Shown: piece after piece, positions 1 to 26,753 of the stretch
How positions within the stretch are numbered: the first letter of the stretch is position 1
Layout of the letters: each line of letters opens with the position of its first letter
Made by a program: the position numbers and the translations under genes
The notes under the pieces: model-generated
Seen by the model: only the letters and a program-made list of their open reading frames with translations
Told to the model about the DNA's origin: nothing
Databases searched by the model: none
Virus record (IMG/VR): IMGVR_UViG_3300020183_000008
Location: 1-64,000 of that record
Length of the DNA: 64,000 nucleotides
Source: a virus
Strand: one strand, 5' to 3'

Positions 1-1
1 T

Positions 2-3000
2 GGTTCCCTGAACTCCAGTAGTTCCTTGGACTCCGGTTACACCTTGGACTCCGGTTACACCTTGGACTCCTGTCGTGCCTTGGACTCCGGTTGCACCTTG
101 AACGCCTGTGGTACCTTGAACACCTGTCTGACCTTGGACTCCAGTAGTACCTTGAACACCAGTTACACCTTGAACGCCGGTTTCACCCTGAACACCTTGA
201 ACCCCTGTGGTTCCTTGGACTCCTGTCGTGCCCTGAACTCCGGTAGTTCCTTGGACTCCGGTAGTTCCTTGGACTCCGGTTACACCTTGAACCCCTGTAG
301 ATCCTTGGACACCAGTTTGACCTTGAACTCCGGTGGAGCCTTGCACACCTGTCGTGCCTTGAACACCGGTTGTACCCTGAACACCGGTTGTACCCTGAAC
401 TCCTGTTACACCTTGTACACCAGTGGCTCCTTGAACTCCGGTAGTTCCCTGAACACCTGTCGTACCTTGGACTCCAGTAGAGCCTTGGACTCCCTGAACA
501 CCTGTGGTTCCTTGGACTCCTGTCTGACCCTGAACACCGGTTTGACCTTGGACTCCCGTGTTTCCTTGGACTCCTTGGACTCCAGTTGCACCTTGAACCC
601 CAGTTTGACCTTGGACGCCCGTAGCACCTTGGACACCCGTGGATCCTTGAACTCCTGTCGTGCCTTGAACACCTGTTACTCCCTGAACACCAGTGACACC
701 TTGGACTCCGGTAGCTCCCTGAACACCAGTTGTGCCTTGAACACCGGTTGTACCCTGAACTCCGGTTACACCTTGAACTCCTGTAGATCCTTGGATGCCT
801 TGGACTCCAGTTACACCTTGTACACCTGTGGCACCTTGAACTCCCGTGGTTCCCTGAACACCTGTGGTTCCTTGGACTCCAGTAGTACCTTGGACTCCTG
901 TCGTACCTTGAACTCCGGTTGTGCCTTGAACTCCAGTGTTGCCTTGGACTCCTGTGGTTCCTTGAACACCTGTATTTCCTTGGACACCGGTCGCTCCTTG
1001 GACACCGGTCGCTCCTTGGACTCCAGTTACCCCCTGAACACCTGTAGCACCTTGGACTCCGGTGGCTCCTTGGACTCCGGTGGCTCCTTGGACTCCTTGG
1101 ACCCCAGTAGTACCTTGCACACCCGTTGCACCCTGAACACCTGTTGCACCCTGAACACCCGTTGCACCCTGAACACCTGTAGTTCCTTGGACGCCGGTGG
1201 TTCCTTGAACTCCCGTGGAGCCTTGGACACCTGTCGTGCCCTGAACACCCGTAACACCTTGAACTCCAGTATTTCCTTGAACCCCAGTATTACCTTGGAC
1301 TCCAGTATTACCTTGAACCCCTTGAACCCCAGTCTGACCTTGGACTCCTGTAGTTCCCTGAACACCGGTCGTGCCTTGAATACCGGTAGCCCCTTGGACT
1401 CCCGTAGATCCTTGGACACCGGTAGCCCCTTGAACTCCTGTGGTTCCCTGAACCCCAGTTTGACCTTGGACGCCCGTAGACCCCTGAACCCCAGTAGATC
1501 CCTGAACACCTGTCGCGCCTTGAACACCAGTGGCTCCCTGAATTCCCGTAGAGCCTTGAACACCGGTTGTGCCTTGAACACCTGTCTGACCTTGGACACC
1601 AGTCTGACCTTGAACACCGGTCGTACCTTGATTTCCTTGCACACCAGTTGTGCCCTGAACCCCTGTTACACCTTGTACTCCAGTTGCACCTTGAACACCG
1701 GTTGTGCCTTGAACACCTGTCTGACCTTGGACACCAGTCTGACCTTGAACACCGGTAGCTCCTTGGACGCCAGTAGTCCCCTGAACTCCGGTTACGCCTT
1801 GAACTCCGGTTGCACCCTGAACTCCTGTAGTTCCCTGTACACCTGTCGTGCCCTGTACACCTTGGACACCAGTTTCACCCTGAACACCTGTGGTGCCTTG
1901 AATACCTGTTCTACCTTGGACACCGGTTGTACCTTGGACTCCTGTCGTGCCCTGTACACCTGTGGCTCCTTGAACTCCGGTGAAACCTTGAACTCCCGTA
2001 GCTCCTTGGACGCCCGTGGTTCCCTGAACACCGGTAGCTCCTTGAACACCTGTGACACCTTGGACACCGGTCGTACCTTGGACACCTGTTGTGCCTTGGA
2101 CTCCAGTCTGACCTTGGACTCCTGTGGTTCCTTGGACACCTGTGACACCTTGGACACCAGTCGATCCTTGAACTCCAGTGGTACCTTGGACTCCAGTGGT
2201 ACCTTGGACACCTGTGACACCTTGCACCCCTGTGTTGCCTTGAACACCTGTCGTGCCCTGAACCCCTGTTACACCTTGGACTCCAGTAGCTCCTTGGACT
2301 CCAGTAGCTCCTTGGACTCCAGTGGCACCTTGAACACCAGTAGCTCCTTGGACGCCAGTAGCTCCTTGGACGCCAGTAGCTCCTTGGACACCTGTGGCTC
2401 CTTGGATTCCCGTCGCTCCTTGGACTCCCGTAGTTCCCTCAACACCTGTCGCACCTTGGACTCCAGTAGATCCCTGCACACCTGTAAAGCCTTGGATACC
2501 GGTTTCACCTTGCACTCCAGTAGTGCCTTGCAAACCTGTGGTTCCTTGGAACCCTGTCGCACCTTGAACACCTGTCTGACCTTGAACACCGGTAGTACCT
2601 TGAATACCTGTAGTACCTTGAATACCTTGAACACCAGTAGATCCTTGGACACCAGTGTTGCCTTGAACACCTGTGGTGCCCTGAATTCCTTGGACACCAG
2701 TGACACCTTGGACTCCTTGTACACCAGTAGCACCTTGCACTCCGGTTGCACCTTGAACTCCTGTCGCACCTTGAACACCTGTGGTTCCTTGTAATCCTGT
2801 TGCGCCTTGTACACCAGTTGCACCTTGAACGCCTGTCGCACCTTGGACTCCAGTGTCACCTTGAACACCAGTTTCACCTTGGACCCCAGTTGATCCCTGC
2901 ACTCCTGTGGATCCTTGGACTCCTTGGACACCTGTCTGTCCTTGGACTCCCGTAGTGCCTTGGACTCCTGTGGAGCCTTGAACACCTGTCGTGCCTTGTA

Positions 3001-6000
3001 CTCCGGTTGCACCTTGAACACCTGTAACACCTTGAACACCAGTCTGACCCTGAACACCGGTCGCGCCTTGAACACCGGTTGCACCTTGAACACCGGTTGC
3101 ACCTTGGACTCCTGTCGTGCCTTGGACACCTGTGGTTCCCTGTACACCTGTCGTGCCCTGTACACCTGTGGTTCCTTGAACACCTGTAGTTCCTTGGACA
3201 CCAGTCGATCCTTGGACACCAGTTGTTCCTTGGACTCCGGTTACACCTTGAACCCCTGTAGATCCTTGGACACCAGTCGATCCTTGGACACCCGTTTGAC
3301 CTTGGACTCCTTGGACACCAGTTGTTCCTTGGACACCAGTTACACCTTGTACACCTGTAACGCCCTGTACTCCTGTGTTTCCTTGAACTCCGGTTGCACC
3401 TTGGACTCCAGTATTTCCTTGAACTCCAGTCGCGCCCTGAATACCTGTATTGCCTTGGACTCCGGTTGTGCCCTGAACTCCAGTTACACCTTGGACTCCA
3501 GTAGATCCTTGAACACCAGTAGTGCCCTGAACTCCAGTGCTACCTTGAACACCGGTAGCTCCTTGAACTCCGGTAGTGCCTTGAACTCCGGTAGTGCCTT
3601 GAACTCCGGTAGTGCCTTGAACACCAGTTTGACCTTGTACACCTGTATTTCCCTGAACACCGGTTACACCTTGGACTCCGGTTACACCTTGGACTCCTTG
3701 GACACCAGTTACACCTTGAACCCCAGTATTTCCTTGAACTCCAGTATTTCCTTGAACTCCAGTCGAACCTTGAACCCCAGTAAATCCTTGGACACCCGTT
3801 GTACCTTGGACTCCTGTGGAGCCTTGTACTCCGGTCGTGCCCTGAATACCTGTTTGACCTTGAACACCGGTTACACCTTGGACTCCTGTAGTTCCCTGAA
3901 CCCCAGTTTGACCTTGAACTCCGGTTACACCTTGGACTCCTGTAGTTCCCTGAACCCCAGTTTGACCTTGAACTCCGGTTACACCTTGGACTCCTGTGGT
4001 TCCCTGAACTCCGGTTGCACCTTGAACTCCAGTGGCTCCCTGAACACCAGTCGTACCTTGGACTCCGGTTGCACCTTGGACTCCTGTGGTTCCCTGAACT
4101 CCAGTAGTTCCTTGGACTCCGGTTACACCTTGGACTCCGGTTACACCTTGGACTCCTGTCGTGCCTTGGACTCCGGTTGCACCTTGAACGCCTGTGGTAC
4201 CTTGAACACCTGTGGTTCCTTGGAGCCCTGTGGATCCTTGAACACCTGTAGATCCTTGGACACCCGTTTGACCTTGGACTCCTGTTACACCTTGAACACC
4301 TTGGACTCCTGTTACACCTTGGACTCCCGTTGAGCCTTGTACTCCAGTTGAACCTTGAACACCGGTTGCACCTCGGATACCTGTAACACCTTGAACACCG
4401 GTTGCACCTTGGATACCTGTAACACCTTGAACACCTGTAACACCTTGGACTCCAGTTTCACCTTGAACACCTGTGGTTCCTTGGACACCGGTTCTACCTT
4501 GTACACCAGTTGTGCCCTGAACTCCTGTCACCCCTTGGACTCCAGTTTCACCCTGTACACCTGTGGTTCCTTGAACACCTGTAGTTCCTTGGACCCCAGT
4601 CGATCCTTGGACTCCTTGGACCCCAGTAGTACCTTGCACACCCGTTGCACCCTGAACACCTGTAGTTCCTTGAACACCTGTAGTTCCTTGAACACCAGTT
4701 GAGCCTTGGACTCCCGTAGTTCCCTGAACACCTGTCGTGCCTTGAACACCTGTTACACCTTGAACACCGGTTTGACCTTGTACTCCAGTGGCACCTTGGA
4801 CACCTGTAACACCTTGTACTCCGGTTACACCCTGAACACCTGTCGTGCCTTGGACTCCGGTTGCACCTTGAACACCTGTAACACCTTGAACACCTGTCGT
4901 GCCTTGAACACCGGTTGTACCCTGAACACCTGTCGTGCCTTGGACTCCTGTCGTACCTTGAACACCAGTGGCTCCTTGAACTCCGGTAGTTCCCTGAACA
5001 CCTGTCGTACCTTGGACTCCAGTAGAGCCTTGGACACCTGTGGTTCCCTGAACACCTGTGGTTCCTTGAACACCAGTTGAGCCTTGGACTCCCGTAGTTC
5101 CTTGAACACCCGTTGCACCTTGGACTCCTGTATTTCCTTGAACACCCTGAAGACCCGTTGTGCCTTGAATTCCTGTCATTCCCTGAACACCGGTTGCACC
5201 TTGGACACCTGTAGTCCCTTGAACTCCAGTGGCTCCTTGAACTCCGGTTACACCTTGAACACCTGTGGTTCCTTGGACACCTGTGGTTCCTTGTAACCCT
5301 GTGATGCCTTGAACTCCCGTGGAGCCTTGGACTCCGGTAGATCCTTGAACACCCGTGAAGCCTTGGACTCCAGTAGATCCTTGAACTCCCGTGGATCCTT
5401 GGATGCCAGTCGTACCTTGGACTCCGGTTACACCTTGGACTCCAGTGGCTCCTTGAACTCCTGTCGTGCCTTGGACTCCGGTCTGACCCTGGACTCCGGT
5501 TGCACCTTGAACACCAGTTGAGCCTTGCACTCCTGTGGTTCCCTGAACACCTGTGACTCCTTGGACACCCGTGGATCCTTGAACTCCTGTCTGCCCTTGT
5601 ACTCCCGTGGATCCTTGGACACCAGTGGATCCTTGCACTCCAGTAGTTCCTTGGACACCAGTGGATCCTTGCACTCCAGTAGTGCCTTGGACACCAGTGG
5701 ATCCTTGCACTCCAGTAGTTCCTTGGACTCCTGTGGCTCCTTGGACTCCTGTGGCTCCTTGGACTCCTGTGGCTCCTTGGACACCCGTGGCTCCTTGGAC
5801 TCCTGTGGCTCCTTGGACTCCTGTGGCTCCTTGGACTCCTGTAGCCCCATCAACACCAAACACACCCGTAGCCCCTTGGACTCCGGTTGCACCTTGAACA
5901 CCTGTAGTCCCTTGAACCCCAGTAACACCCATGTCACCAGCGGGTGCAAAAGAAACTACAACTTGCTGTCCGTTGACGAAATTGTTGGATGCATCAACGT

Positions 6001-9000
6001 AGTTTACGGTGATAATTCTCCAGTTAGAACCTCCAAACCCTGTACCATTTGTTACATTCGTAACTTTGAATTTAGCATAAACAGTCTGGTCGCTTCCTAA
6101 GTGGAAAATCAAATAGCCCTTAGTAGGATTCGTTGATTGTTTCCAAGAATCTAACCAACCTGAAACAGATGGATCGAGAGAGTCTAAGTTATTGAAAACA
6201 TCGATATAGATGAATCCAGGATTCATCGAGCTGACTGTACCAGATGAAAATCTAAAGTATGACCCACCTGGACGCGAGGCTGATGTACTGTCGGAGAAGT
6301 AATAATATTCACTATAACCGCTTATAGGACCTTGGCTTCCAGTGACACCTTGGACACCTGTAGCTCCTTGGATGCCTGTGGTACCTTGGACTCCAGTAGT
6401 ACCATCGATTCCGCGAACACCAGTTAAACCCTGAACTCCTGTTTGACCTTGAACACCGGTTTCACCTTGGACTCCAGTTACACCTTGAATTCCCTGAACA
6501 CCTGTCGTGCCTTGGACACCAGTGGCACCTTGGATGCCAGTTTCACCTTGGATCCCCGTGGTGCCTTGAACTCCTGTCTCACCTTGCACACCAGTGCTTC
6601 CCTGAACTCCTGTGGTGCCTTGGACGCCCGTAGCACCCTGTACACCTGTAGCACCCTGTACACCCGTAGCTCCCTGAACACCTGTGGCTCCTTGGACTCC
6701 AGTAGCTCCTTGGACGCCCGTAGCTCCCTGAACACCTGTGGCTCCTTGGACGCCCGTAGCTCCTTGGACGCCCGTAGCTCCTTGGACGCCCGTAGCTCCT
6801 TGGACGCCCGTAGCTCCTTGGATGCCTGTAGCTCCTTGGACTCCTGTTGTGCCTTGAATTCCGGTTTGACCTTGGACTCCCGTAGCCCCTTGGACACCAG
6901 TCTGACCTTGGACTCCTGTGGCTCCTTGGACTCCGGTTACGCCTTGCACCCCTGTCTCACCTTGAACACCAGTAGCACCTTGAACTCCGGTTGTGCCTTG
7001 AACTCCAGTGTTGCCTTGGACTCCTGTCGTGCCTTGAACTCCGGTTGTGCCTTGAACTCCAGTGTTGCCTTGGACTCCTGTCGTGCCTTGAACTCCAGTG
7101 GAACCTTGGACTCCCGTAGCTCCTTGAACACCAGTGGAACCTTGGACTCCCGTAGCTCCTTGAACACCAGTGGAACCTTGAACCCCCGTAGCTCCCTGAA
7201 CACCTGTTGTGCCTTGGACACCTGTGGTGCCTTGGACTCCAGTAGCTCCTTGGACACCTGCCGTGCCCTGAACCCCTGTTACACCTTGTACTCCAGTAGC
7301 TCCTTGGACTCCAGTAGCTCCTTGGACTCCTTGGACTCCTGTCGCTCCTTGGACTCCTGTCGTGCCTTGGACTCCAGTAGCTCCTTGGACACCTGTTACA
7401 CCTTGGACTCCAGTAGCACCTTGCACACCCGTTGCACCCTGAACACCGGTTGTACCCTGAACTCCTGTCGTGCCTTGGACTCCCGTGGTTCCTTGGACTC
7501 CAGTCGTCCCTTGTACACCGGTTTGACCTTGAATACCCGTAGATCCTTGGACACCTGTGGCTCCTTGGACTCCTGTCGCTCCTTGGACTCCTGTTGTGCC
7601 TTGGACTCCAGTAGCTCCTTGGACACCTGTTACACCTTGGACTCCAGTCGTACCCTGAACTCCAGTAAATCCTTGGATCCCTGTTTGACCTTGGACTCCA
7701 GTAGTTCCTTGGACTCCCGTTGTTCCCTGAATACCTGTGTTACCTTGGACTCCCGTCGTGCCTTGAATCCCGGTGGAGCCTTCAACTCCTGTCGTACCTT
7801 GGACACCGGTTACACCCTGAACCCCAGTCGCTCCTTGAACACCGGTTGTGCCTTGCACTCCCGTTGCACCCTGAACCCCAGTTGCTCCCTGAACACCGGT
7901 TGAGCCTTGCACTCCCGTTGCACCTTGAACTCCTGTCGTACCTTGGATACCGGTGACCCCTTGGACTCCGGTTAGACCTTGAACACCGGTGGTTCCTTGA
8001 ACTCCAGTAGCTCCTTGAACTCCAGTATTTCCTTGGACACCGGTGACCCCTTGGACTCCGGTTAGACCTTGAACACCGGTGGTTCCTTGAACTCCTTGGA
8101 CTCCGGTAGCTCCTTGAACTCCAGTATTTCCTTGGACACCTGTGGTGCCTTGGACTCCGGTAGCTCCTTGAACTCCAGTATTTCCTTGGACACCGGTGGT
8201 TCCTTGAACTCCAGTGGCTCCTTGGACACCTGTGGTGCCTTGGACTCCAGTTACACCTTGAACTCCCGTAGTTCCTTGAACTCCAGTAGCTCCTTGAACT
8301 CCAGTTGTACCTTGGACACCAGTAGCTCCTTGGACACCTGTTACGCCTTGGACTCCGGTTGCACCTTGAACCCCAGTGGTTCCCTGAACGCCTGTTGTGC
8401 CTTGGACTCCGGTAGCTCCTTGGATTCCGGTAGCTCCTTGGACTCCGGTAGCTCCTTGAACTCCAGTATTTCCTTGGACACCTGTGGTGCCTTGGACTCC
8501 CGTGGAGCCTTGGACACCTGTCGTGCCCTGAACACCCGTAACACCTTGAACTCCAGTATTTCCTTGGACACCGGTGGTTCCTTGAACTCCCGTGGAGCCT
8601 TGGACACCTGTCGTGCCCTGAACACCCGTAACACCTTGAACTCCAGTATTTCCTTGAACACCGGTCATTCCTTGGATACCCGTTGTTCCTTGGACACCTG
8701 TCGTGCCCTGAACACCCGTAACACCTTGAACTCCAGTATTTCCTTGAACACCGGTCATTCCTTGGATACCCGTTGTTCCTTGAACACCTGTCTGTCCTTG
8801 AAGACCTGTCTGACCTTGAACTCCCGTGGTTCCTTGAACTCCGGTTACACCTTGGACTCCGATTACGCCCTGAACTCCGGTTACACCCTGAACTCCGGTC
8901 GTGCCTTGAACTCCTTGGACACCTGTCGCACCTTGGACACCAGTAGCACCTTGAACACCAGTAGTGCCCTGAACTCCAGTGCTACCTTGAACACCGGTAG

Positions 9001-12000
9001 CTCCTTGAACACCGGTAGCTCCTTGAACTCCGGTAGTGCCTTGAATACCAGTCGTGCCTTGAATACCAGTCGTGCCTTGAATACCGGTTTCACCTTGGAC
9101 ACCAGTTGCACCTTGGACACCAGTTGTACCTTGGACACCGGTTACCCCTTGAATCCCCTGTACACCTGTGGATCCTTGCACACCGGTTGAGCCTTGAACA
9201 CCTGTCGTACCCTGGACACCAGTGGTTCCTTGAACTCCAGTGAACCCTTGAATACCTGTTACACCTTGGACTCCGGTTTCACCTTGTACACCTGTGGCTC
9301 CTTGAACTCCCGTGGAACCTTGAACTCCCGTAGCTCCTTGAACTCCTGTGGTTCCTTGAACTCCTGTGGTTCCTTGAACTCCCGTGGTTCCCTGAACACC
9401 AGTTACTCCTTGGACACCAGTTGCACCTTGGACACCAGTAGCACCTTGGACACCAGTTGCACCTTGGACACCTGTTTCACCCTGAATACCAGTCTGACCT
9501 TGCACACCTGTGGTGCCTTGGACTCCGGTAGTGCCTTGAACACCTGTGGTTCCTTGGACCCCTGTGGATCCCTGAACACCTGTGGTTCCTTGGACTCCAG
9601 TGGCACCCTGTACACCTGTAGATCCTTGAACTCCAGTGGAACCTTGAACTCCCGTAGCTCCTTGAACTCCAGTGGAACCTTGAACTCCCGTAGCTCCTTG
9701 AACACCCGTTGCACCTTGCACTCCAGTAGACCCTTGAACTCCGGTTGTGCCTTGCACTCCTGTTTCACCTTGGACTCCTTGAACACCAGTAGCTCCTTGA
9801 ACTCCTGTAGTTCCCTGAACACCAGTTTGACCTTGGACTCCGGTTTCACCTTGAACTCCTTGAACACCAGTTGTACCTTGCACTCCAGTCTGACCTTGGA
9901 CACCTGTCGTGCCTTGAACTCCTTGAACACCAGTTGTGCCTTGGACTCCGGTTGCCCCTTGAACCCCTGTAAATCCTTGAACACCTGTTAAACCCTGAAC
10001 TCCTTGAACACCTGTTAAACCCTGTACACCGGTTGTACCATCTACACCAAAAACACCGGTTGCACCCTGAACACCGGTTGTTCCAAAATCGCCTGCCGGT
10101 GCAAATGAGACGATCAATTCCTGATTATTTTGGAAAAGGTTTGATGCATCAACATAATTAACGGTAACGATTCTCCAGTTCGTTCCACCTAGACCTGTTC
10201 CATTTTCAACATTCAGAATTCTAAATTTTGCATAAATAGTCTGATTGTCACCTAGGTGGAAAATCAAATAACCTTTAGTAGGATTTGTTGATTGTTTCCA
10301 AGAGTCCAACCAACGATATACGGACTCATCGAGATTCGATGCAGTAAAGGCATCGATATAAACAAATCCTGGTGTCATCGTAGCCGGATTTGCCGCTGAA
10401 AATCTTACGAATGATGCACCAGGTCTTGATGCTGTGGTGCTAGTTGAAAATTTGTAATATTCACTATTTCCGCTGATAGGTCCTCGGTTACCTGTAGGTC
10501 CTTGCAAACCTGTGGCACCTTGGATTCCTGTTGTACCTTGAACTCCAGTCAAACCCTGAATTCCGGTGATCCCCTGAACACCAGTTTCACCTTGGACACC
10601 TGTGGCACCTTGAATTCCAGTGTCACCCTGAACTCCAGTTAAACCCTGAACTCCTTGGACACCTGTAGCTCCTTGGATTCCAGTTTCTCCTGTGCCTTGA
10701 ATACCTGTGGCTCCTTGAACACCCGTGCCACCACCAGGGATACCCGTAGCACCTTGGATTCCAGTTTCACCCTGTACCCCCTGTACCCCCGTGGTTCCTT
10801 GGACTCCTGTTGTGCCTTGGACTCCTGTCGTGCCTTGGACTCCTGTCGTGCCTTGGACTCCAGTAGTTCCCTGAACACCTGTCGTGCCTTGGACGCCAGT
10901 GGCACCTTGAATACCTGTTAAGCCAACTGGACCTTGAATACCGATTTGACCTGTCGCACCTTGAACGCCAGTAGACCCTTGCACTCCCGTGGTGCCTTGA
11001 ACGCCTGTTACACCTTGAACCCCTGTAGATCCTTGGACACCAGTAGATCCTTGAACACCAGTAGATCCTTGGACACCTGTAGCACCTTGAACACCAGTCT
11101 CACCTTGGACACCAGTATTACCTTGAATACCTGTGGAGCCTTGGACTCCAGTTTCACCTTGGATACCAGTCTCACCTTGCACCCCTGTGGAGCCTTGAAC
11201 ACCGGTTTCACCTTGGACTCCAGTGTTGCCTTGGACTCCTGTCGTGCCTTGAACTCCAGTGGAACCTTGGACTCCCGTAGCTCCTTGAACACCAGTGGAA
11301 CCTTGGACTCCCGTAGCTCCTTGAACACCAGTGGAACCTTGAACCCCCGTAGCTCCCTGAACACCTGTGGTTCCTTGGACTCCAGTAGCTCCTTGGACTC
11401 CAGTAGCTCCTTGGACTCCAGTAGCTCCTTGAACTCCAGTAGCTCCTTGAACTCCCGTAGCACCCTGAACACCTGTTGCACCCTGCACACCTGTCGTGCC
11501 TTGGACACCTGTGGTGCCTTGGACTCCAGTAGCTCCTTGGACACCTGTCGTGCCCTGAACCCCTGTTACACCTTGTACTCCCGTTGCACCCTGAACACCT
11601 GTCGTGCCTTGTACACCTGTGGTTCCTTGGACTCCAGTAGCTCCTTGGACTCCAGTCGTCCCTTGTACACCGGTTTGACCTTGAATACCCGTAGATCCTT
11701 GGACACCCGTGGCTCCTTGGACTCCTGTCGCTCCTTGGACTCCTGTCGTGCCTTGGACTCCAGTAGCTCCTTGGACACCTGTTACACCTTGGACTCCAGT
11801 AGCACCTTGCACACCCGTTGCACCCTGAACACCGGTTGTACCCTGAACTCCTGTCGTGCCTTGGACTCCCGTGGTTCCTTGGACTCCTGTCGTTCCTTGG
11901 ACCCCTGTGGATCCCTGAACCCCCGTGCTTCCTTGAACCCCAGTAGATCCCTGAACACCTGTCGCGCCTTGAACACCAGTGAAGCCTTGGACTCCTGTGG

Positions 12001-15000
12001 TGCCTTGAACTCCTGTAACACCTTGCACTCCTGTCGTGCCTTGCACACCGGTTGCACCTTGAACTCCTGTCGAACCTTGGACACCGGTTGCACCTTGGAC
12101 TCCTGTCGTGCCTTGGACTCCGGTTGCACCTTGAACGCCTGTGGTACCTTGAACACCTGTCTGACCTTGGACTCCAGTAGTACCTTGGACTCCTGTTGCC
12201 CCTTGGACACCAGTATCTCCTTGCACACCCCGAACACCGGTCTGACCTTGGACTCCAGTAGCACCTTGGACACCAGTTGAGCCTTGAACTCCAGTTAAAC
12301 CAACCGGACCTTGAATACCTATTTGACCAGTAGCACCTTGGACACCAGTTGCACCTTGAATACCGGTTGTGCCTTGCACTCCTGTGGTGCCTTGTACTCC
12401 CGTTGTTCCCTGAATACCCGTTGCACCTTGCACTCCAGTAGACCCTTGAACTCCGGTTGTGCCTTGCACTCCTGTTTCACCTTGCACACCTGTCGTGCCT
12501 TGTACTCCCGTTGTTCCCTGAATACCCGTTGCACCTTGCACTCCAGTAGACCCTTGAACTCCGGTTGTGCCTTGCACTCCTGTTTCACCTTGCACACCTG
12601 TCGTGCCTTGGACACCCGTTGCACCTTGCACTCCAGTAGACCCTTGAACACCCGTAGTGCCTTGGACTCCGGTAGCTCCTTGGACTCCAGTTGCACCTTG
12701 AACACCAGTCGTACCTTGGACTCCTGTGGTGCCTTGAACACCAGTTACTCCCTGAACTCCCGTAGCTCCCTGAACACCTGTCGTACCTTGGACTCCTGTA
12801 GCACCCTGAACACCTGTCGCGCCTTGAACACCAGTGAAGCCTTGGACTCCTGTGGTGCCTTGAACACCTGTAGTGCCTTGAACACCAGTTTCACCTTGGA
12901 CACCTGTTGTGCCTTGAACACCTGTAGTGCCTTGAACCCCAGTTTGACCTTGAACTCCGGTGGAGCCTTGCACACCTGTCGTGCCTTGAACACCGGTTGT
13001 ACCCTGAACACCGGTTGTACCCTGAACTCCTGTTACACCTTGTACACCAGTCGAACCCTGGACTCCTGTGGATCCTTGGACTCCAGTGTTACCTTGAACA
13101 CCAGTAGCTCCTTGGACTCCGGTTACACCTTGGACTCCCGTAGTGCCTTGGACACCCGTTGCACCTTGGACTCCGGTATTTCCTTGAACACCTGTGAATC
13201 CTTGCACACCAGTTAAACCAACAGGACCTTGAGTACCTATCTGACCGGTGACTCCTTGAACTCCTGTAGATCCTTGGACTCCGGTAGTACCCTGAACACC
13301 CTGAACACCGGTTGCACCTTGGACTCCCGTTGTGCCCTGTACTCCAGTAGCTCCTTGAACACCTGTGGTGCCTTGAATTCCGGTGGCACCCTGAACTCCG
13401 GTTACGCCTTGGACACCCGTCTCACCTTGAACTCCGGTGGTGCCTTGGACACCCGTGGTTCCTTGGACACCAGTTACACCTTGGACTCCAGTTTGTCCTT
13501 GAACACCCGTAGCACCCTCAACTCCGGTTGCACCTTGGACTCCAGTGGCACCCTGTACACCGGTGGTGCCTTGGACTCCAGTAGTTCCTTGGACTCCCGT
13601 TGTTCCCTGAATACCTGTGTTACCTTGGACTCCCGTCGTGCCTTGAATCCCGGTGGAGCCTTCAACTCCTGTCGCTCCTTGGACACCTGTTGTGCCTTGG
13701 ACTCCAGTTGTGCCTTGTACCCCAGTTTGACCTTGAACACCAGTTGAGCCTTGGACACCTGTAGTTCCCTGAACACCTGTCGCGCCTTGGACTCCTGTAT
13801 TTCCTTGAACACCTGTAGAACCTTGAACACCAGTCTGACCTTGGACACCTGTAGCTCCTTGAACACCAGTGGTTCCCTGAACACCGGTAGTTCCCTGAAC
13901 ACCAGTCTGACCTTGAACACCAGTAGTTCCATGAACACCAGTAGTTCCCTGAACACCAGTTACTCCTTGAAATCCAGTCTGACCTTGAACACCAGTAGCA
14001 CCTTGCACTCCTGTCGTGCCTTGGACTCCAGTTACGCCTTGGACTCCTGTCGTGCCTTGGACTCCCGTGGTGCCTTGCACTCCTGTCGTGCCTTGGACTC
14101 CAGTTACGCCTTGGACTCCTGTCGTGCCTTGGACTCCTGTCTGACCTTGGACACCAGTTACACCTTGTACACCGGTTACACCCTGTACTCCTGTGTTTCC
14201 TTGAACCCCAGTAGATCCCTGAACACCTGTCGCGCCTTGAACACCAGTGGCTCCCTGAATTCCCGTAGAGCCTTGAACTCCAGTTTCTCCTTGAATTCCT
14301 TGAACTCCGGTAGATCCTTGGACTCCTGTCTGACCCTGAATACCTGCCACACCCTGAACACCAGTAGCACCTTGATCACCTGCTGGAGCAAAGGTTACAA
14401 TCAACTGTTGACCATCTACGAACAAATCGGATGCATCGACATATTCAACCGTAACAAGACGCCAGTTTTCCCCACCGAAGCCGCTTCCATTTTCAACGCT
14501 AATAACTTTGAATTTTACGTAAACACTTTGATCATCACCTAGGTGGAAAATCAAATAACCCTTGGTGGAATTAGTTGCACTATCCCAACTATCGATCCAC
14601 GCCGCGACCGAAGGATCAAGAGATCCTTGGTTCGTAAAGGCATCGATATAAACGTAGCCTGGAGTCATCGAACTTGGGTCATCCGATGAAAATTTCACAT
14701 AAGTTCCACCAGGACGTGTTGCACTCGTATCTGAAGAGAATATGTAATATTCACTATACCCGCTGATAGGTCCTCGGTTACCGGTGACACCTTGGACACC
14801 GGTTGCACCTTGAATACCGGTCATTCCTTGAACACCGGTCATTCCTTGAACACCCTGAACACCGGTCGTACCTTGGACACCGGTTGCACCTTGCACTCCA
14901 GTCTCACCTTGTACACCGGTATCACCTTGTACACCTTGAACACCGGTCGTACCTTGGACACCGGTTGCACCTTGCACTCCAGTCTCACCTTGGACACCAG

Positions 15001-18000
15001 TGGTTCCTTGAACACCAGTAGCTCCCTGGACTCCTGTGGCTCCATCTACACCTGTAGCCCCTTGAACTCCCGTAGTTCCTTGGACTCCTGTAGCCCCCTG
15101 AACACCTGTCGTGCCTTGGACTCCTGTGGCACCCTGAACACCAGTGGCTCCTTGGACTCCCGTGGTTCCTTGGACACCTGTCGTTCCTTGGACACCTGTG
15201 GCACCATCTACACCAAAAACACCGGTTGCACCTTGAACTCCTGTAGCACCTTGCACACCCGTTGCACCCTGAACACCGGTTGTACCCTGAACTCCTGTCG
15301 TGCCTTGGACTCCCGTGGTTCCTTGGACACCTGTCGTTCCTTGGACCCCTGTGGATCCCTGAACCCCCGTGCTTCCTTGAACCCCAGTAGATCCCTGAAC
15401 ACCTGTGGTGCCTTGAACACCAGTTTCACCTTGGACACCGGTTGCACCTTGGACTCCTGTCGTGCCTTGAACACCTGTCTGACCTTGGACTCCAGTGGCT
15501 CCCTGAACTCCTGTTTCACCTTGAACACCTGTTTCACCTTGAACACCAGTTCTACCTTGGATGCCTGTCTGACCTTGGACACCTGTCGTGCCTTGCACAC
15601 CGGTTGCACCTTGGACTCCTGTCGTGCCTTGCACACCGGTTGCACCTTGGACTCCTGTCGTGCCTTGCACACCGGTTGCACCTTGAACTCCTGTCGAACC
15701 TTGCACACCGGTCTGACCTTGGACTCCAGTGGAGCCTTGAACACCAGTCTGACCTTGGACTCCTGTGGTGCCTTGAACACCAGTCTGACCTTGGACTCCA
15801 GTGGCTCCTTGGACACCTGTCTGTCCTTGGACTCCAGTGGCTCCTTGCACTCCCGTTGAACCTTGCACTCCCGTTGAACCTTGGACTCCTGTGGAACCTT
15901 GCACTCCCGTTGAACCTTGGACTCCCGTAGCCCCTTGGACTCCCGTTGAACCTTGGACTCCCGTAGCCCCTTGGACTCCTGTGGAACCTTGCACTCCCGT
16001 TGAACCTTGGACTCCTTGGACTCCAGTAGATCCTTGGACTCCCGTTTGACCTTGAACACCGGTCTGACCTTGGACTCCAGTAGCACCTTGGACACCAGTT
16101 GAGCCTTGAACTCCGGTTAAACCAACCGGACCTTGAATACCTATTTGACCAGTAGCACCTTGGACACCAGTAGCACCTTGGACACCAGTAGTGCCCTGTA
16201 CCCCTTGGACTCCTGTGGAACCTTGGACTCCTGTTGTGCCTTGGACTCCTGTGGCTCCCTGAACGCCTGTCGAACCTTGGACTCCGGTGGCTCCTTGGAC
16301 TCCGGTGGCTCCTTGGACTCCTGTAGTCCCTTGAACTCCAGTAGCACCTTGAACACCAGTTGATCCTTGAACTCCAGTAGCACCTTGAACACCAGTTGAT
16401 CCTTGAACACCAGTTGATCCTTGGACTCCCGTGGTGCCTTGAACACCGGTAGCTCCTTGGACCCCTGTAGTGCCTTGAACACCAGTTGATCCTTGGACCC
16501 CTGTAGTGCCTTGAACACCTGTAGCTCCTTGGACCCCTGTAGTGCCCTGTACACCTGTGGCACCTTGGACTCCTGTTTCACCTTGGACTCCTGTAGTTCC
16601 TTGAACTCCAGTCGATCCTTGGACACCGGTTCTACCTTGTACACCTGTAGCACCTTGGACACCCGTAGCGCCTTGGACTCCTGTCTGACCTTGGACACCA
16701 GTTACACCTTGGACACCTGTGGTTCCTTGGACACCTGTAGTGCCTTGCACTCCTGTGGTTCCTTGGACTCCAGTGGTGCCTTGAACGCCCGTGGTACCTT
16801 GGACTCCTTGAACCCCAGTGGCTCCTTGGACACCTGTTACACCTTGCACTCCCGTTGTGCCTTGGACTCCTGTTGCACCTTGAACGCCCGTGGTGCCTTG
16901 AACACCTGTATTTCCTTGAACACCTGTATTTCCTTGGACTCCTGTCGTGCCTTGGACTCCTGTCGTGCCTTGGACTCCTGTCGTGCCTTGCACTCCTGTC
17001 GTGCCTTGGACTCCAGTTACGCCTTGGACTCCTGTCTGACCTTGGACACCAGTTACACCTTGTACACCGGTTACACCCTGTACTCCTGTGTTTCCTTGAA
17101 CCCCAGTAGATCCCTGAACACCTGTCGCGCCTTGAACACCAGTGAAGCCTTGGACTCCTGTAGCACCCTGAACTCCGGTTGTTCCTTGAACACCAGTCTG
17201 ACCTTGGACACCTGTGTTACCTTGGACTCCAGTGGTGCCTTGAACACCAGTAGTTCCATGAACCCCAGTGGTGCCTTGAACACCGGTCTGACCTTGGACA
17301 CCAGTAGCACCTTGGACACCAGTTGAGCCTTGAACTCCGGTTAAACCAACCGGACCTTGAATACCTATTTGACCAGTAGCACCTTGGACACCAGTAGCAC
17401 CTTGGACACCAGTAGTGCCCTGTACACCTGTCGTGCCTTGGACTCCTGTCGTGCCTTGGACTCCTGTGGAACCTTGGACACCAGTTACACCTTGGACTCC
17501 TGTGGATCCCTGAACACCAGTGGCTCCTTGGACTCCTGTCGTGCCTTGGACTCCTGTGGAACCTTGGACACCAGTTACACCTTGGACTCCTGTGGATCCC
17601 TGAACACCAGTGGCTCCTTGGACACCAGTTGAGCCTTGAACACCAGTAGTTCCCTGAACCCCTGTCGCTCCCTGGACACCTGTGGCTCCTTGGACTCCAG
17701 TTGTTCCCTGAACTCCGGTAGTTCCTTGGACTCCCGTAGCTCCTTGGACTCCGGTTGTGCCTTGCACTCCTGTGGTTCCCTGCACCCCGGTTCTGCCTTG
17801 AACTCCAGTTTCACCTTGAACACCTGTCTGACCCTGTACTCCTGTGGCTCCCTGAACGCCTGTCGAACCTTGGACTCCGGTGGCTCCTTGGACTCCGGTG
17901 GCTCCTTGGACTCCTGTAGTCCCTTGAACTCCAGTAGCACCTTGAACACCAGTTGATCCTTGAACTCCAGTAGCACCTTGAACACCAGTTGATCCTTGAA

Positions 18001-19780
18001 CACCAGTTGATCCTTGGACTCCCGTGGTGCCTTGAACACCTGTTACACCTTGCACTCCCGTAGCACCTTGAACGCCCGTGGTGCCTTGAACACCTGTATT
18101 TCCTTGGACTCCTGTATTTCCTTGGACTCCTGTCGCGCCTTGGACTCCTGTCGCGCCTTGGACTCCTGTCGCGCCTTGAACCCCAGTGCTTCCTTGCACT
18201 CCCGTCTGACCCTGAACCCCAGTGCTTCCTTGCACTCCTGTAGCTCCTTGGACTCCTGTAGCTCCTTGGACTCCTGTGGCTCCTTGGACACCTGTCTGTC
18301 CTTGGACTCCCGTAGTGCCTTGGACACCTGTAGTGCCTTGCACTCCTGTGGTTCCTTGGACTCCAGTGGTGCCTTGAACGCCCGTGGTACCTTGGACTCC
18401 CGTAGTTCCCTGAACACCTGTCGTGCCTTGGACTCCTGTGGCACCCTGAACACCAGTGGCTCCTTGGACTCCCGTAGTTCCCTGAACACCTGTCGTGCCT
18501 TGGACTCCTGTAGAACCTTGTACACCAGTCGCACCTTGGACACCTGTAGCGCCTTGAACTCCTGTCGTGCCTTGGACTCCTGTAGAACCTTGTACACCTG
18601 TAGCGCCTTGGACACCAGTAGCACCTTGTACACCAGTCACACCGTACTGACCAGTTTGACCTTGAGCACCTTGAAGACCATCAGATCCGGTTACACCTTG
18701 AACACCAGTTTCACCTTGAACACCTGTTACACCTTGAACACCAGTTAAACCGACAATACCTGTGATACCTTGAACACCTGTTTGTCCGTAGATACCTGTA
18801 ATACCTTGAACACCTGTTTCACCAATAGCACCTTGCAAACCGGTTTCACCCGCAACACCGGTTTGACCTTGGACACCTGTAAATCCTGAAGGACCTTGTA
18901 CACCTTGTACACCTGTTGATCCTTGAACACCCGTGCGACCTTGAATACCCGTTGATCCTTGAACACCACCAACACCAGTAGCACCTTGAACACCAGTGAA
19001 ACCTGGACCTTGCAGACCTGTAGCACCCTGAACACCAGTGTTTCCGAGGGGACCTTGAACACCTGTCTGCCCAGCAACACCTTGAACACCTGTCTGCCCA
19101 GCGACCCCTGTGGCACCTTGGACACCAGTTTCACCTTGGACACCTGTAGATCCTTGAACTCCCTGAACTCCGGTAGCTCCTTGGACACCAGTGTCGCCTT
19201 GAACTCCGGTTGCACCCTGAACGCCGGTGGTTCCTTGAACACCTTGAACACCTGTGGTTCCTTGAACCCCAGTTCTTCCTTGGACACCTGTTACACCCTG
19301 AACTCCAGTTTGACCTTGAACACCTTGAACACCGGTACCACCTTGAAGACCTTGAGATCCTTGGATACCTTGCAATCCTTGGATACCGGTGTTGCCTTGA
19401 ACACCTTGGACTCCCGTGGTTCCCTGAACACCTGTGCTACCTTGAACACCCGTGGTTCCTGAAATACCTGTACTACCTTGAACACCAGTGAAACCTGGAC
19501 CTTGCAGACCTGTAGCACCTTGTGAGCCGATACCTGTCGTACCTTGCACACCAGTTACACCTTGCAGACCTCTAATACCCGTGGTGCCTTGTTGTGATTG
19601 AATCGTCGCAAACGAAGGCTTCCACTGTGAATCAGAAATGTCGAAGTAGTAAAACGCGTTAATGTTTTTAACGTAGCGTACTTCGTTTTCTTGAGGTGAG
19701 ACAACGCTAGATAAATCAGCGATGTTGTTTACAGCATAGGTGATTGCATAGGCTAATTGTTGGTAAAACGGAGTGCTCAT
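2..19780 (-). CDS. Giant collagen-like (Gly-X-Y) protein, at least 6593 aa, 3' end outside the window; probable virion fibre
   Basis: Manual translation: ATG at 19780 preceded by AAAGGA gives [65 protein letters not shown], then (G-V/I-Q-G-A/T/V/S/E/Q-T)n. The same frame was checked at the three globular inserts and at position 4. The long antisense shadow ORFs (starts 26, 2915, 6443, 8069, 14792, 18959) all keep one frame. The ORF track would list it if a stop existed. Confidence 0.93.
5939..6328 (-). repeat. Globular insert domain, copy 3
   Basis: [45 protein letters not shown]...[24 protein letters not shown]...[13 protein letters not shown]...SFAPA. Confidence 0.92.
10094..10480 (-). repeat. 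Globular insert domain, copy 2
   Basis: [45 protein letters not shown]...[24 protein letters not shown]...[13 protein letters not shown]...SFAPA. Confidence 0.92.
14381..14770 (-). repeat. Globular insert domain, copy 1 (~130 aa), in the collagen protein
   Basis: [45 protein letters not shown]...[24 protein letters not shown]...[13 protein letters not shown]...TFAPA. Confidence 0.92.
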
Positions 19781-19951
19781 TTATCCAGTCCTTTTGGAGC
19801 GTTGTGTTCTATGCTTTGTTCATTCTCAAATGGGAAAAGTATCATTTAATTATCGCTCAAAATTCCGCCGAAAACAAATTGCAAGTTTATCTATTCTAGG
19901 GAAATATAAAACAGACTAAACTTTCGAAATGAATTTGAAAAGGAAAAGTCT

Positions 19952-21436
19952 GTGAATACTCTTAGTCTTTGTATGATTGTCAAAAATGAAGAATCTACGA
20001 TCGAAAGATGCTTAAATTCAACGCAAGATGTTTGCGATGAAATCATCATAGTAGATACGGGAAGTACCGACCGCACCAAAGAAATATTAAAGTCTTTTCC
20101 AAAAGTGAAAATTTTCGATTTCACATGGGTAGAGGACTTCGCTGCGGCGCGTAACGAAAGTTTCCGACACGCAACGAGCGACTTAATGTTCTGGTTGGAT
20201 GCGGATGATGTACTCAAAGAAAAAGACGTCCAAATTCTTCGCAAATACAAAAGCACCCCCTTGAATCAATTAGCTGACTGCTACGTTGGTAAATATCAAT
20301 ATAGCCATGATAGTTATGACAATGTTCTAACAACGCTGATGCGAGAAAGAATCTTTAAAAGAAGCCCTTTAATTAAATGGAAATACAAAATTCACGAGTG
20401 TATCCCCCTCAACTGCTTCCGAAAAGTAGAAAATACAGATTTTGAAGTACACCACTACAAGACTGCCCCTCAAATTCAAAGATCTGAGGGTAGGAATTTA
20501 AGAATACTAAAAGCGTGCGTAGATGATCCATCCGAGCGGTGCCCGCGCTATGAATTTTATTATGCCAAAGAATTAGCTATCGTTAGAAAGTATGATGAAG
20601 CCGTAACATGGTTTAAGGAATACTTAAAGCACTGGGATTTTTTCGAAGATGCCCATTACGCTTATTATAAATTAGCTGAAATCGCTCTTGAGAAAAGAGA
20701 TTTCGATGAAGCAGTCAATCAATGCATGGATGCTTTAAAATTAGACATGCGGAAAGCCGACCTGTATTGCTTGCTAGGTTTGATTTTCATAAATCGTGAG
20801 CGTTGGGACTTGGCGAAATTCTGGTACGAGGCTGCTCTAAATATGCCAAGACCCGATGACTCATACGGATTCTTCGATATGGACAGACACACCTTCTCAC
20901 CAAACTTTCAGCTTTCTTATGTTTTTTATAAACTTGGAGATTTCGATTCTGCTTTAAAACATATCAACAGGTGTTTGCAATTTAGACCTAAAGACCATCA
21001 AGCTCTCGTGAACAAGGCTTTTATAGAAAAAGAACAAAAACTAAAAATAAGAAAGAATCACCACAACCTAGCTATTTATATCCCCTTCTCATTTGATGAG
21101 AACAACCCAAACATTAGAATTCGCAAACTGAATTTAGTTGAAGAACTCAAAAACAAAAATCTGGATGCAGATATCATTCAAGATTTTCCAAGTTTGATGA
21201 ACTATGACAGAATCATCGCGCATAGCCCCTTGAACCCCAAAGAGATGAGACTACTACAAAGAAGCGGGAAAGTGGTGTGCTTAGATATAGCTGAAGGGGT
21301 ATTCTCGAATTCATTTGATGAACAAATAAGCAAATATGATATAGTTTTATGCTCCTCTAGTAAAATCAAAGAATATTGCTTAAACTTGAACATGAATTCA
21401 GTTCATCTTCCTGATAGTCATGAGGCTTCAATATGA
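19952..21436 (+). CDS. GT2 glycosyltransferase with TPR repeats, plus a C-terminal half of a GT-B fold
   Basis: LSLCMIVKNEE, IVDTGSTDRT, DFAAARN, WLDADD (DxD), IHE and RNLRIL motifs; helical TPR-like repeats follow. Confidence 0.9.
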   Translation: MNTLSLCMIVKNEESTIERCLNSTQDVCDEIIIVDTGSTDRTKEILKSFPKVKIFDFTWVEDFAAARNESFRHATSDLMFWLDADDVLKEKDVQILRKYKSTPLNQLADCYVGKYQYSHDSYDNVLTTLMRERIFKRSPLIKWKYKIHECIPLNCFRKVENTDFEVHHYKTAPQIQRSEGRNLRILKACVDDPSERCPRYEFYYAKELAIVRKYDEAVTWFKEYLKHWDFFEDAHYAYYKLAEIALEKRDFDEAVNQCMDALKLDMRKADLYCLLGLIFINRERWDLAKFWYEAALNMPRPDDSYGFFDMDRHTFSPNFQLSYVFYKLGDFDSALKHINRCLQFRPKDHQALVNKAFIEKEQKLKIRKNHHNLAIYIPFSFDENNPNIRIRKLNLVEELKNKNLDADIIQDFPSLMNYDRIIAHSPLNPKEMRLLQRSGKVVCLDIAEGVFSNSFDEQISKYDIVLCSSSKIKEYCLNLNMNSVHLPDSHEASI

Positions 21437-23778: not shown

Positions 23779-24413
23779 ATGACTTGAAAGAAGCACCAGA
23801 ATATTTATCTCTGAAGGAAAAGGTAAAATCTTGCGGGTGTGATGATCCTGATGTGTTTGGTGATAGCTGTTATGGTGGATATTTACTTCAACAAAACGCT
23901 GAAGAGTTTGCCGCTCTTATTTATTTTTTGAAGAAACAGGGTCCATTCAACAATTACGTTGAAATCGGATCCGCATCAGGTGGAAATCTCCGCTTTATTT
24001 TTGAAAATGTGGGATTCTATAGAGCGTTTTCTTTCGATGATCTTATGCACCCACACGCTGTACACCAGCCTGGAAATTCTTGGCGTTTCGGTGAACGCTT
24101 AACCCGTTACATCGGGGATTCTCATCATATAGAAGCCGAAAAAATGTTATCAAGATGGTTAAATAAACAAGTCATCGACTGCGTTTTCATCGATGGAGAC
24201 CACTCGCTTTCAGGAGTTTTACAGGACTATGACATGGTAAAGCCCCACCTAACGGCAAGGTCTTTACTGATTTTTCACGACACGCATTCAATACCAGATA
24301 TTGGAATAGCTACGAAACATTTAATTGAGGGTAATGAAATTAAACCATTGGCTCATTTCGTAGCAGAACTTAATCGTTGTGGAATTCTTGTAGCTCAATT
24401 TTCAGGCAAGTAA
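23766..24413 (+). CDS. Class I SAM-dependent methyltransferase (Methyltransf_24-like)
   Basis: VEIGSASGG, GDSH, VFIDGDHS...DY, IFHDT. Confidence 0.85.
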   Translation: MVTLNDLKEAPEYLSLKEKVKSCGCDDPDVFGDSCYGGYLLQQNAEEFAALIYFLKKQGPFNNYVEIGSASGGNLRFIFENVGFYRAFSFDDLMHPHAVHQPGNSWRFGERLTRYIGDSHHIEAEKMLSRWLNKQVIDCVFIDGDHSLSGVLQDYDMVKPHLTARSLLIFHDTHSIPDIGIATKHLIEGNEIKPLAHFVAELNRCGILVAQFSGK

Positions 24414-26163: not shown

Positions 26164-26753
26164 AGCAAACCTAGTCTCTTTCGTTCTTGAGTCCAAAAGT
26201 CAGGTTTTACAACGCGAATTTTATAACGAATTTCATCGACTACATTCCAATAGGCTAATCTTGTTTTTTGTTGGACTTCAGGGGACTCCTGATAGAGATA
26301 TTCATATTCAGGAAAATAACCGAACTGAATTTCTTCAACTTCCAACGTGCATTTCAACCAAAATTCAGAAATGCTTCCCTTACGAACAAGAGTATTTCCA
26401 CAAGGCTTGTGAGTTGGGCTGAAGAAAGAAAAAGTGAATTCGTTGAATCTATTATTCGTATGGAAAGGATTCGCTACGGTGTGATGTGTATGCGCATACG
26501 GAACTTTGATATTCCAGATGATGTCTGGTTTAGACACACGCCACATCTCTTCTAAACAATGAACAAACCCTTTGACAGGATCGAGATGCTCCAAACAGTG
26601 AGATGAGTACAGCTCATCTACTGAATCATCCTCGAAAGGCAGAGGCTCTGTATTCAAGTCTACAACTCGGTGCACGCATGGATGCTCGAAACAATCAATA
26701 TTGATATAACCCGCAAGAGGAATCGGACCACCACCAAGTTCAATTTTTACCAT
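26160..26753 (-). CDS. SAM-dependent methyltransferase (Methyltransf_11-like)
   Basis: IELGGG...GYINID, LPFEDDSVDELYSSHCLEHL, EEMWRVSKP. Confidence 0.85.
   Translation of the reverse strand: MVKIELGGGPIPLAGYINIDCFEHPCVHRVVDLNTEPLPFEDDSVDELYSSHCLEHLDPVKGFVHCLEEMWRVSKPDIIWNIKVPYAHTHHTVANPFHTNNRFNEFTFSFFSPTHKPCGNTLVRKGSISEFWLKCTLEVEEIQFGYFPEYEYLYQESPEVQQKTRLAYWNVVDEIRYKIRVVKPDFWTQERKRLGLL

Follow-up and report, generated by a model that had tools for sequence, protein, structure and literature searches.

A giant collagen-like gene beside a glycosylation island: a putative threonine-glycosylated virion fiber of a huge lake-water phage

Collagen-like fibers of phages, threonine-rich glycosylated collagens of bacteria, and virus-encoded collagen glycosylation are already known. 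We describe a gene that joins these themes in a new combination: at least 2,043 Gly-X-Y triplets in a truncated phage gene, hexads free of charge and proline, globular domains (here termed beads) set in line with the collagen blocks at regular intervals, and a conserved cassette of the GmaR/SunS glycosyltransferase (GT) type. The gene lies at the start of IMG/VR record IMGVR_UViG_3300020183_000008. The window, the whole stretch of DNA that was analyzed, is 64,000 nucleotides long and corresponds to bases 1-64000 of one 155,270-bp virus contig. The gene is a single-copy open frame of collagen composition, it is conserved together with a pair of GT genes, and its beads are kin to domains of phage tail fibers. 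We favor, with somewhat better than even confidence, a product that is a Thr-O-glycosylated homotrimeric collagen-like fiber on the virion of a huge lake-water phage.

The closest relatives in kind are the collagen-like tail fibers of phages (PF01391; EPclA-D of an Escherichia coli O157:H7 prophage, PMC3368898; the PHROG 'collagen like minor tail'). They share with the present protein the Gly-X-Y repeat, globular domains, and a distal tip, and the fold or sequence family of the bead is common to many of them. Those fibers have tens to a few hundred triplets, whereas the fiber described here reaches its much higher count in four blocks, lacks proline and charge, and is accompanied by a dedicated glycosylation island. 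Mimivirus fibrils (PMC8968730) likewise bring together virus-encoded collagen-like proteins and the enzymes that glycosylate them; there, the sugars are linked to hydroxylysine and the hosts are amoebae, whereas here the putative acceptor is Thr, lysine is absent, and the virus is a tailed phage. Outside viruses, BclA and BclA3 of the Bacillus and Clostridioides exosporium are Thr-rich Gly-X-Thr proteins with N-terminal attachment and a C-terminal globular domain (PMC10470788, PMC7157674): BclA is fixed to the spore through its N-terminal domain (PMC10470788), and BclA3 is glycosylated by SgtA (PMC7157674). BclA differs in its fewer than 100 triplets of the proline-rich GPT type, its place on the spore surface, and its C1q-like BclA_C knob; the phage protein is built from Val-Gln/x-Thr hexads. 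The length of the BclA filament follows the number of its repeats.

The cuticle collagen of Riftia pachyptila offers a likeness in size and chemistry. According to Mann et al. (1996), as cited in 2 later accounts, it combines a very long helix and globular domains with glycosylated Thr at Y, which replaces hydroxyproline and stabilizes the helix (PMC11923368, PMC11766948). It differs as a protein of the animal extracellular matrix, of unrelated origin, that contains proline and hydroxyproline and is not a virion appendage. Gaill et al. reportedly found annelid cuticle collagen to measure 1.5-2.5 micrometers. Annelid cuticle collagens are also described elsewhere as very long (PMC11766948), and prokaryotic collagen-like polypeptides reach about 2,000 triplets (PMC11923368); the length of the present fiber is therefore at the known extreme, not beyond all precedent. 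A word-index census of giant collagens (3,626-11,538 aa) returned 5 proteins, the longest of 4,726 aa; with about 900 candidates scored and broken genes not called, it does not prove the fiber here to be the longest.

An earlier, sequence-only reading of this DNA had described a single open frame from the ATG at 19780 to the window edge, and that frame stands. The listing of open reading frames (ORFs) gives 6,593 codons on the minus strand, with an ATG start and a 3' end open at the contig edge, and an independent translation contains zero stops. Of its residues, 6,129 (2,043 triplets) are in Gly-X-Y register, in runs at aa 65-85, 96-260, 263-1672, 1801-3018, 3020-3031, 3034-3102, 3230-4486, and 4615-6591. 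These runs make up blocks of about 1608, 1302, 1257, and at least 1979 aa, in agreement with the 1606, 1300, 1255, and 1979 aa given before, and the longest perfect runs extend over 659 (open-ended), 470, 419, and 406 triplets. The visible chain has a mass of about 603 kDa. Pfam Collagen (PF01391) matches aa 1-593 at E 1.7e-79 (261.9 bits); because of this match, the in-frame beads with their low ratio of nonsynonymous to synonymous change (dN/dS), and the conservation of start and N-terminus in orthologues, the frame is not a chance one.

Since the window is the first 64 kb of its contig, the gene runs off the contig start. The check proposed earlier, translation past the window, thus does not reach the stop or the C-terminal domain; the likely end is seen in 2 relatives. 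The 19.8 kb hold one N-terminal domain only, with no stop or tip domain, and no C-terminal domain of the fiber was found elsewhere in the 155,270-bp contig. We agree that the N-terminus does not resemble a signal peptide. The N-terminal domain (aa 1-64) gave no significant Pfam or PHROG match, no relatives in a word search of proteins of 115-2,000 aa, and no match when its profile was run against metagenome contigs.

The helix part has an unusual and regular chemistry. Position X is Val in 51% of triplets and Thr in 15%; position Y is Gln in 49% and Thr in 48%. Gln and Thr alternate at Y in 93% of neighboring triplets, Thr-Thr is absent, and the repeat pattern is (Gly-Val-Gln-Gly-x-Thr)n hexads. 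Across its 6,129 residues there are 1,290 Thr (about 980 at Y), 0 Lys, 13 Arg, 14 Asp, 41 Glu, and 13 Pro: a total of 68 charged residues and 0 KGE or KGD. Lys-Glu/Asp salt bridges (KGE/KGD) have been proposed as a general clamp, or folding code, of long collagens (PMC11923368). With 0 Lys, 13 Pro, and 68 charged residues, both hydroxyproline and salt bridges are unavailable for stabilization; only the Thr-glycosylation route is left, and stability would therefore come from O-glycosylated Thr. (Gly-Pro-Thr)10 turns helical only once it is galactosylated (PMC11923368, PMC11766948). In the absence of proline, cis-trans isomerization would not slow the folding of the fiber, and the helix part would offer few cleavage sites to trypsin and to Pro-dependent collagenases. 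If the helix forms, it tests how far Thr glycosylation alone carries triple-helix stability, and KGE/KGD clamps would be dispensable (PMC11923368).

A candidate enzyme is encoded next door, divergently from the fiber gene. This protein carries Glycos_transf_2 at aa 5-159 (E 8e-26) and TPR at about aa 212-360, and its nearest solved relatives are GmaR (E 1.8e-22, aa 4-187) and SunS, the S-glycosyltransferase of SPbeta (E 1.8e-22, aa 3-248). GmaR is the flagellin N-acetylglucosamine transferase of Listeria; it has the GT-then-TPR order, and its TPR is proposed to recognize the protein substrate (PMC9638930). FlmG, a TPR-plus-GT flagellin glycosyltransferase, is a further analogue (PMC7591256). 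The enzyme here is like GmaR and SunS in having GT2 followed by TPR (the same order as in GmaR) and in belonging with enzymes of protein or peptide substrates; it differs in its putative collagen-like substrate and in lacking an antirepressor domain. Among 80 viral loci, a collagen-like ORF stands in the flanks of 12 of the 20 with a full-length GT+TPR relative (2 of the 12 are near-duplicates) versus 2 of the 60 with partial matches. In those 12 loci, the collagen ORF is usually within about 600 bp downstream of the enzyme, and Thr makes up 32-93% of its Y positions. Judged by gene neighborhood, the GT2-TPR family is linked to Thr-rich collagens, a parallel to BclA3 with SgtA (PMC7157674). 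By analogy and proximity, the GmaR/SunS-type enzyme next to the gene very probably puts sugars on the fiber.

Glycosylation on this scale could also serve a different kind of polymer. Gly periodicity is held for up to 659 triplets, with only 5 small breaks, and was kept while the DNA drifted to 73% identity; strict periodicity despite such drift is a signature of selection for a triple helix, not of a disordered linker. This speaks against a mucin-like glycosylated polymer, or a coiled or bundled 'hair' coat, that would belong to the virion and act as a shield or in weak multivalent adhesion but would be no tether, as does an architecture of beads and tip that fits trimeric fibers. We rate such a coat as unlikely. 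It draws its appeal from a helix part without proline and charge, the usual stabilizers (PMC11923368), from 1,290 Thr beside a glycosylation island, from the lack of a tail module nearby, and from the hair-like appendages known in the jumbo phages PTm1 and Y3 together with the coil on the tail of phage G (PMC13282480).

The beads tie the homotrimeric fiber that we favor to a broader family. The 3 copies are in frame and 63-69% identical as proteins, with dN/dS of 0.14-0.22 and saturated synonymous change (dS). Against 1.84 billion representative proteins, the bead profile finds 836 at E<=0.001; these are mostly of 500-1,700 aa with 2-7 copies of the domain, and collagen runs occur in 83 of the best 150. 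PHROG tail-fiber regions are present in 5 of the 6 family members examined (P0009 has none), in one case along with an Mtd second domain. An AlphaFold2 model built on a 20-sequence alignment is beta-rich with one helix (pLDDT 90.7, pTM 0.86). In BFVD, this model matches 41 viral proteins at E<=0.001, at best with TM of about 0.8 and a root-mean-square deviation of about 2 Å. Most of these matches carry the annotation 'collagen triple helix repeat' and come from uncultured tailed phages; a cyanophage 'baseplate wedge tail fiber connector' is also among them, as are collagen-repeat proteins of the giant viruses Marseillevirus LCMAC102, Indivirus, and Klosneuvirus. By sequence and model, then, the bead is a widespread collagen-associated module of viral fibers.

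Solved structures gave no significant match to the bead: the best Foldseek hits in PDB had E 0.018 and 0.035, the best scores in VIA-align wide (Z 6.7 and 6.2) were at noise level, and the best E of a PDB sequence profile was 0.38, an outcome that does not show a new fold. There was likewise no significant Pfam or PHROG match, and a scan of IMG/VR with the bead profile by peptide patterns found no match. A trimer prediction for 3 copies of the bead with 24-aa collagen flanks scored 0.23, which is under the mark, and is counted neither way. Each of collagen blocks 1-3 has a bead directly on its C-terminal side. Canonical collagen folds as a C-to-N zipper from a nucleation domain (PMC11923368), and by analogy the beads sit where such a domain would. 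Because a bead lies C-terminal to each block and relatives carry a tip after the last bead, tip and beads may therefore act as trimerizing, register-setting nucleation points.

A gene of this length must be separated from an assembly product. The DNA of the fiber repeats is only about 73% self-similar, repeated 127-mers cover 1.5% of positions, and the other 98.5% are unique at this word length. For the peptide GVQGTTGVQ, 264 copies are encoded in 178 distinct DNA spellings. These many spellings, the repeat identity, and the saturated dS and low dN/dS of the beads indicate an old array under protein-level selection, not a recent runaway repeat. The stretch is present in 24 public runs, nearly all of them 2018 lake-water metagenomes; at least 14 runs of that year contain more than half of the words sampled from it. 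In 4 lake-water runs, Logan contigs cover all 30 bins of window positions 1-20000 at >=95% identity. Seven unique pieces across 2360-19504, the 3 beads included (2360-2949, 5877-6476, 9743-10826, 14249-14885, 17528-17867, 18569-19012, and 18998-19504), match the flanking 77-kb phage contig in depth in all 4 runs; in run X1, the pieces have depths of 37-53 versus 44 for that contig, and the other 3 runs are alike. Unique DNA and matching depth together assign to this phage at least 19.8 kb of collagen-coding DNA that is distinct and single-copy.

We therefore hold it very improbable that the length is an artefact, with 2 or more shorter collagen-like genes, or variants from different strains, fused at repeats that they have in common. 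The assembly is a short-read one, and the first 127 contig bases are identical to 4087-4213, which looks like a k=127 graph break; 3 internal exact repeats, the longest in the gene (203, 175, and 152 bp), exceed that k. Logan contigs, built at k=31, show many alternative joints and loose ends, as 31-mer repeats predict, and long-range order is beyond their reach; all related assemblies, too, break in the fiber gene. What counters such joining, beyond the uniqueness of the DNA and the depth of the sampled pieces with their 3 distinct beads, is the single N-terminal domain, with zero stops or tips in 19.8 kb and none elsewhere in the contig. Assemblers usually collapse repeats rather than expand them, and independent evidence comes from relatives with contiguous stretches of at least 2,814 and at least 2,294 residues. 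Circular closure of the 155,270-bp contig was considered and rejected: the two ends do not overlap, and the far one, which is not collagen, likewise stops in a repeat. The sole weak synteny, between contig positions 145022-145300 and a gene downstream of the fiber gene in the metagenome contig L086 (E 6e-6), is too little for closure. At that far end (154,723-155,270), the last ~130 bases recur about 520 bp upstream, within a tandemly duplicated small gene.

Related phages extend the picture. A scan of IMG/VR with GT2-TPR found 3 contigs (G001-G003) in which the enzyme is 57% identical and an orthologue of the collagen gene, with a 55% identical N-terminal domain, lies divergently upstream. 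These contigs end inside the collagen gene after 987, 1,461, and 2,814 open residues. G001 also has the multi-domain GT in the same position at 61% identity, as it has GT2-TPR at 57%. G001 is labeled 'direct terminal repeats, 100% complete'; its 87-bp terminal repeat lies within the collagen gene, at both contig ends. When the circle is joined, the frame reaches 3,082 aa or more and comprises an N-terminus of 62 aa, 2 internal knobs (99 and 130 aa) that are not homologous to the bead of the phage studied, and a C-terminal domain of 124 aa. Because the circle was closed through a repeat, both the genome size of G001 and the 3,082-aa gene length are minima. Giant fiber genes can thus give rise to a spurious 'direct terminal repeat'.

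Two metagenome contigs, L086 (18.9 kb) and L089 (95.6 kb), start inside collagen of the GVQGxT style; L086 has 2,037 unbroken residues before its end region. In both, the end consists of a bead of the same family, 8-9 triplets, and a tip of about 105 aa, and on this sequence likeness it is likely the best model for the missing end of the fiber gene. BLASTP shows no relationship between the L086 and G001 tips. Receptor-binding fibers of phages usually combine a conserved N-terminus with knobs and tips that vary. The G001 tip had no significant Pfam or PHROG match, and a search of IMG/VR returned only itself; the L086 tip had no solved relative and resembled unnamed phage clusters only, and P0005, a protein that contains this tip, had no Pfam match.

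Assembly and gene calling both bear on how such genes are recorded. Among the short-read assemblies examined, 5 related contigs break off within the gene, and in a sixth the circle is closed there. In L086 (positions 1-6885; Ga0310140_0005198), public calls miss a 2,294-aa open collagen frame: 15 small ORFs are called over the collagen, those that can be matched to the frame listing sit in another frame, and the public call in the true frame covers the last 225 aa only, from an internal Met. Giant fibers are probably under-counted systematically in databases, because assemblies break in them and gene callers miss them.

The genes that follow the fiber in relatives bear on where the protein acts. 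Directly after the L086 fiber gene, a gene of about 212 aa (6986-7630) matches PHROG 985, virion structural protein. L089 has a homologue in the same place (1386-2060, 57% identity), and in G001 the PHROG 985 match (L081:2103-2741) is the second gene downstream of the fiber gene. The gene after the fiber in the 3 relatives is about 212-225 aa long and may encode a fiber assembly or partner protein. No homologue of this PHROG 985-type gene was found in the 155-kb contig.

These neighbors weigh against a protein that is not part of the virion: a matrix or net that the infected cell would make and then shed on lysis or display, perhaps to clump hosts or debris, or a protein with some other non-structural role. 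Such a role would suit a gene that sits in an island of GTs and methyltransferases and not in a recognized tail module, for which placement on the virion is deduced from sequence. We nonetheless regard it as distinctly improbable. The protein has neither a signal peptide nor a membrane anchor, the bead and the tip domains of the relatives are typical of phage fiber proteins, a PHROG 985 'virion structural protein' gene lies downstream in 3 relatives, and the pairing of conserved N-terminus with variable tip is the classic fiber pattern. The part of a virion fiber, suggested before from the DNA, is in this way backed indirectly: by the bead in tail-fiber and viral collagen-repeat proteins, by the conserved N-terminus, and by the variable knobs and tips.

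The virus itself is a phage, as the large terminase (TerL, 35044-36894) and portal (32997-34685) found by PHROG matches indicate. These 2 of the neighbors named in the sequence-only reading were recovered; the baseplate genes it also named were not, as neither Baseplate_J nor Phage_sheath_1 has a match in the 155-kb contig. CheckV puts completeness of the virus record at 35%, from which a genome of close to 440 kb follows. TerL shares 70% identity with its counterpart in the 355,874-bp IMG/VR contig G001 and at most 37% with TerL of GenBank phages, with a 485-kb uncultured phage as the best; a megablast of 6 kb of flank against GenBank phages had no match. We conclude that the virus is a huge lake-water phage with a genome of about 350-450 kb. 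The G001 orthologue of TerL (192268-194970) is one 914-aa frame that matches in 2 pieces, aa 2-164 and 118-614. This suggests a ~230-300 aa insertion, possibly intein-like, that is absent from TerL of the phage studied.

We propose the following course for the glycosylated homotrimeric fiber. The conserved 64-aa N-terminus would dock the fiber to the particle. Three chains would trimerize at the tip and beads, and each segment of 360-565 nm would zip up from there. Before or during folding, GT2-TPR would add the first sugar to the ~980 Y-position Thr; the 781-aa multi-domain GT would lengthen the glycan, and modification of the sugars would fall to the methyltransferases. What results would be a thread, thin, flexible, and coated with sugar, whose contour measures at least 1.75 micrometers. 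The variable distal tip would bind the host and so enlarge the capture radius of a slowly diffusing huge phage, and the fiber may in this manner act as a capture line. The earlier arithmetic of about 1.7-1.8 micrometers is borne out: 6,129 residues at 0.286-0.29 nm give a computed contour of 1.75-1.78 micrometers, with segments of about 456, 372, 360, and at least 565 nm. As a worm-like chain with a persistence length of 15-100 nm, such a thread would have a root-mean-square reach of about 0.23-0.58 micrometers. Among jumbo phages, hair-like appendages of head or tail are described in PTm1 and Y3, and phage G has a coil around its tail (PMC13282480).

Several points weigh against this reading. 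Expression, virion association, glycosylation, and the triple helix are each deduced, not observed. Without glycosylation, a Gly-X-Y chain free of proline and charge may not make a stable helix. The N-terminal domain falls in no recognizable family, and none of the tail, sheath, or baseplate genes is recognized in the contig. The C-terminus is off the contig and is modeled on relatives whose tips differ. Finally, the order of segments across the 203-, 175-, and 152-bp exact repeats rests on one short-read assembly.

In its strongest form, the proposal holds that the full protein is a single trimeric thread of more than 1.75 micrometers on the particle, which folds without proline, hydroxyproline, or Lys-Glu/Asp bridges by means of Thr glycans and re-nucleating beads. 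This we consider possible but doubtful. If true, no longer virion appendage would be known, and few collagen helices would be as long; the thread would be a capture line of about host-cell length and would contradict the salt-bridge 'folding code' that has been proposed as universal for collagens. It would also give a molecular identity to the hair- and thread-like appendages of huge phages and a larger capture radius in dilute lake water. The beads provide a testable model for how very long helices keep their register. In addition, a Pro-free collagen with almost no trypsin sites and its own glycosylation enzymes is an attractive biomaterial scaffold.

Table 1. Features of the fiber gene, its surroundings, and the adjacent glycosylation island (window coordinates).
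Feature	Coordinates	Strand	Basis or remark
Collagen-like fiber gene (putative)	2..19780	-	ORF listing, translation, Pfam Collagen; 3' end off contig
N-terminal non-collagen domain, aa 1-64	19589..19780	-	55% identity in orthologues; proposed virion attachment
Collagen block 1, aa 65-1672, breaks of 10 aa and 2 aa, ~456 nm if helical	14765..19588	-	
Bead 1, 128 aa, beta-rich globular (predicted)	14381..14764	-	
Collagen block 2, aa 1801-3102, breaks of 1 aa and 2 aa, ~372 nm if helical	10475..14380	-	
Bead 2, 127 aa	10094..10474	-	
Collagen block 3, aa 3230-4486, 419 unbroken triplets, ~360 nm if helical	6323..10093	-	
Bead 3, 128 aa	5939..6322	-	
Collagen block 4, aa 4615-6593, 659 unbroken triplets to contig edge, at least 565 nm if helical	2..5938	-	
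TTCGGCGGA motif, candidate phage promoter or regulatory element	19864..19872, 28086-28094, 45071-45079	-, +, +	9-mer count
GT2 + TPR protein glycosyltransferase, 494 aa, GmaR/SunS-like	19952..21436	+	Divergent from fiber gene
781-aa multi-domain GT, GT1/GT4 and GT2 modules	21433..23778	+	Proposed glycan extension
S-adenosylmethionine (SAM) methyltransferase (Methyltransf_24)	23766..24413	+	
Second methyltransferase (26160-26753) and weak GT2-like ORF (26747-28024)	26160..28024	-	Possible further island members

The 9-mer TTCGGCGGA occurs in 3 copies in the window against 0.27 expected. One of them is 84 nt upstream of the fiber ATG, inside the 171-bp divergent intergenic region.

Some further features of the contig and of a bacterial relative of the island are worth recording. 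A bacterial contig from a metagenome-assembled genome (MAG), CAYVYN010000001.1 (445,804 bp), encodes a GT (G004:C1:298189-299283) that is 55-56% identical to the C-terminal half of the 781-aa GT. It holds one in-frame TGA and might be a pseudogene or a gene in which TGA is recoded, or it might stem from an exchange of genes with a possible host lineage; TerL and the bead were not found in this MAG. Between the glycosylation island and the portal gene, a 501-aa Gly-rich ORF (30740-32245, minus strand) has long GGxGG and GSGG stretches, with 108 of its residues in Gly-X-Y-like runs; neither Pfam nor PHROG has a match for it, and it may encode another structural or fiber protein. Farther along, a sigma-70 region-4 protein (40076-40699, minus strand) adjoins a KOW-motif, NusG-like protein (40706-41362, minus strand); both may be phage transcription factors. 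A clamp-loader-like AAA+ protein is encoded at 41390-42811.

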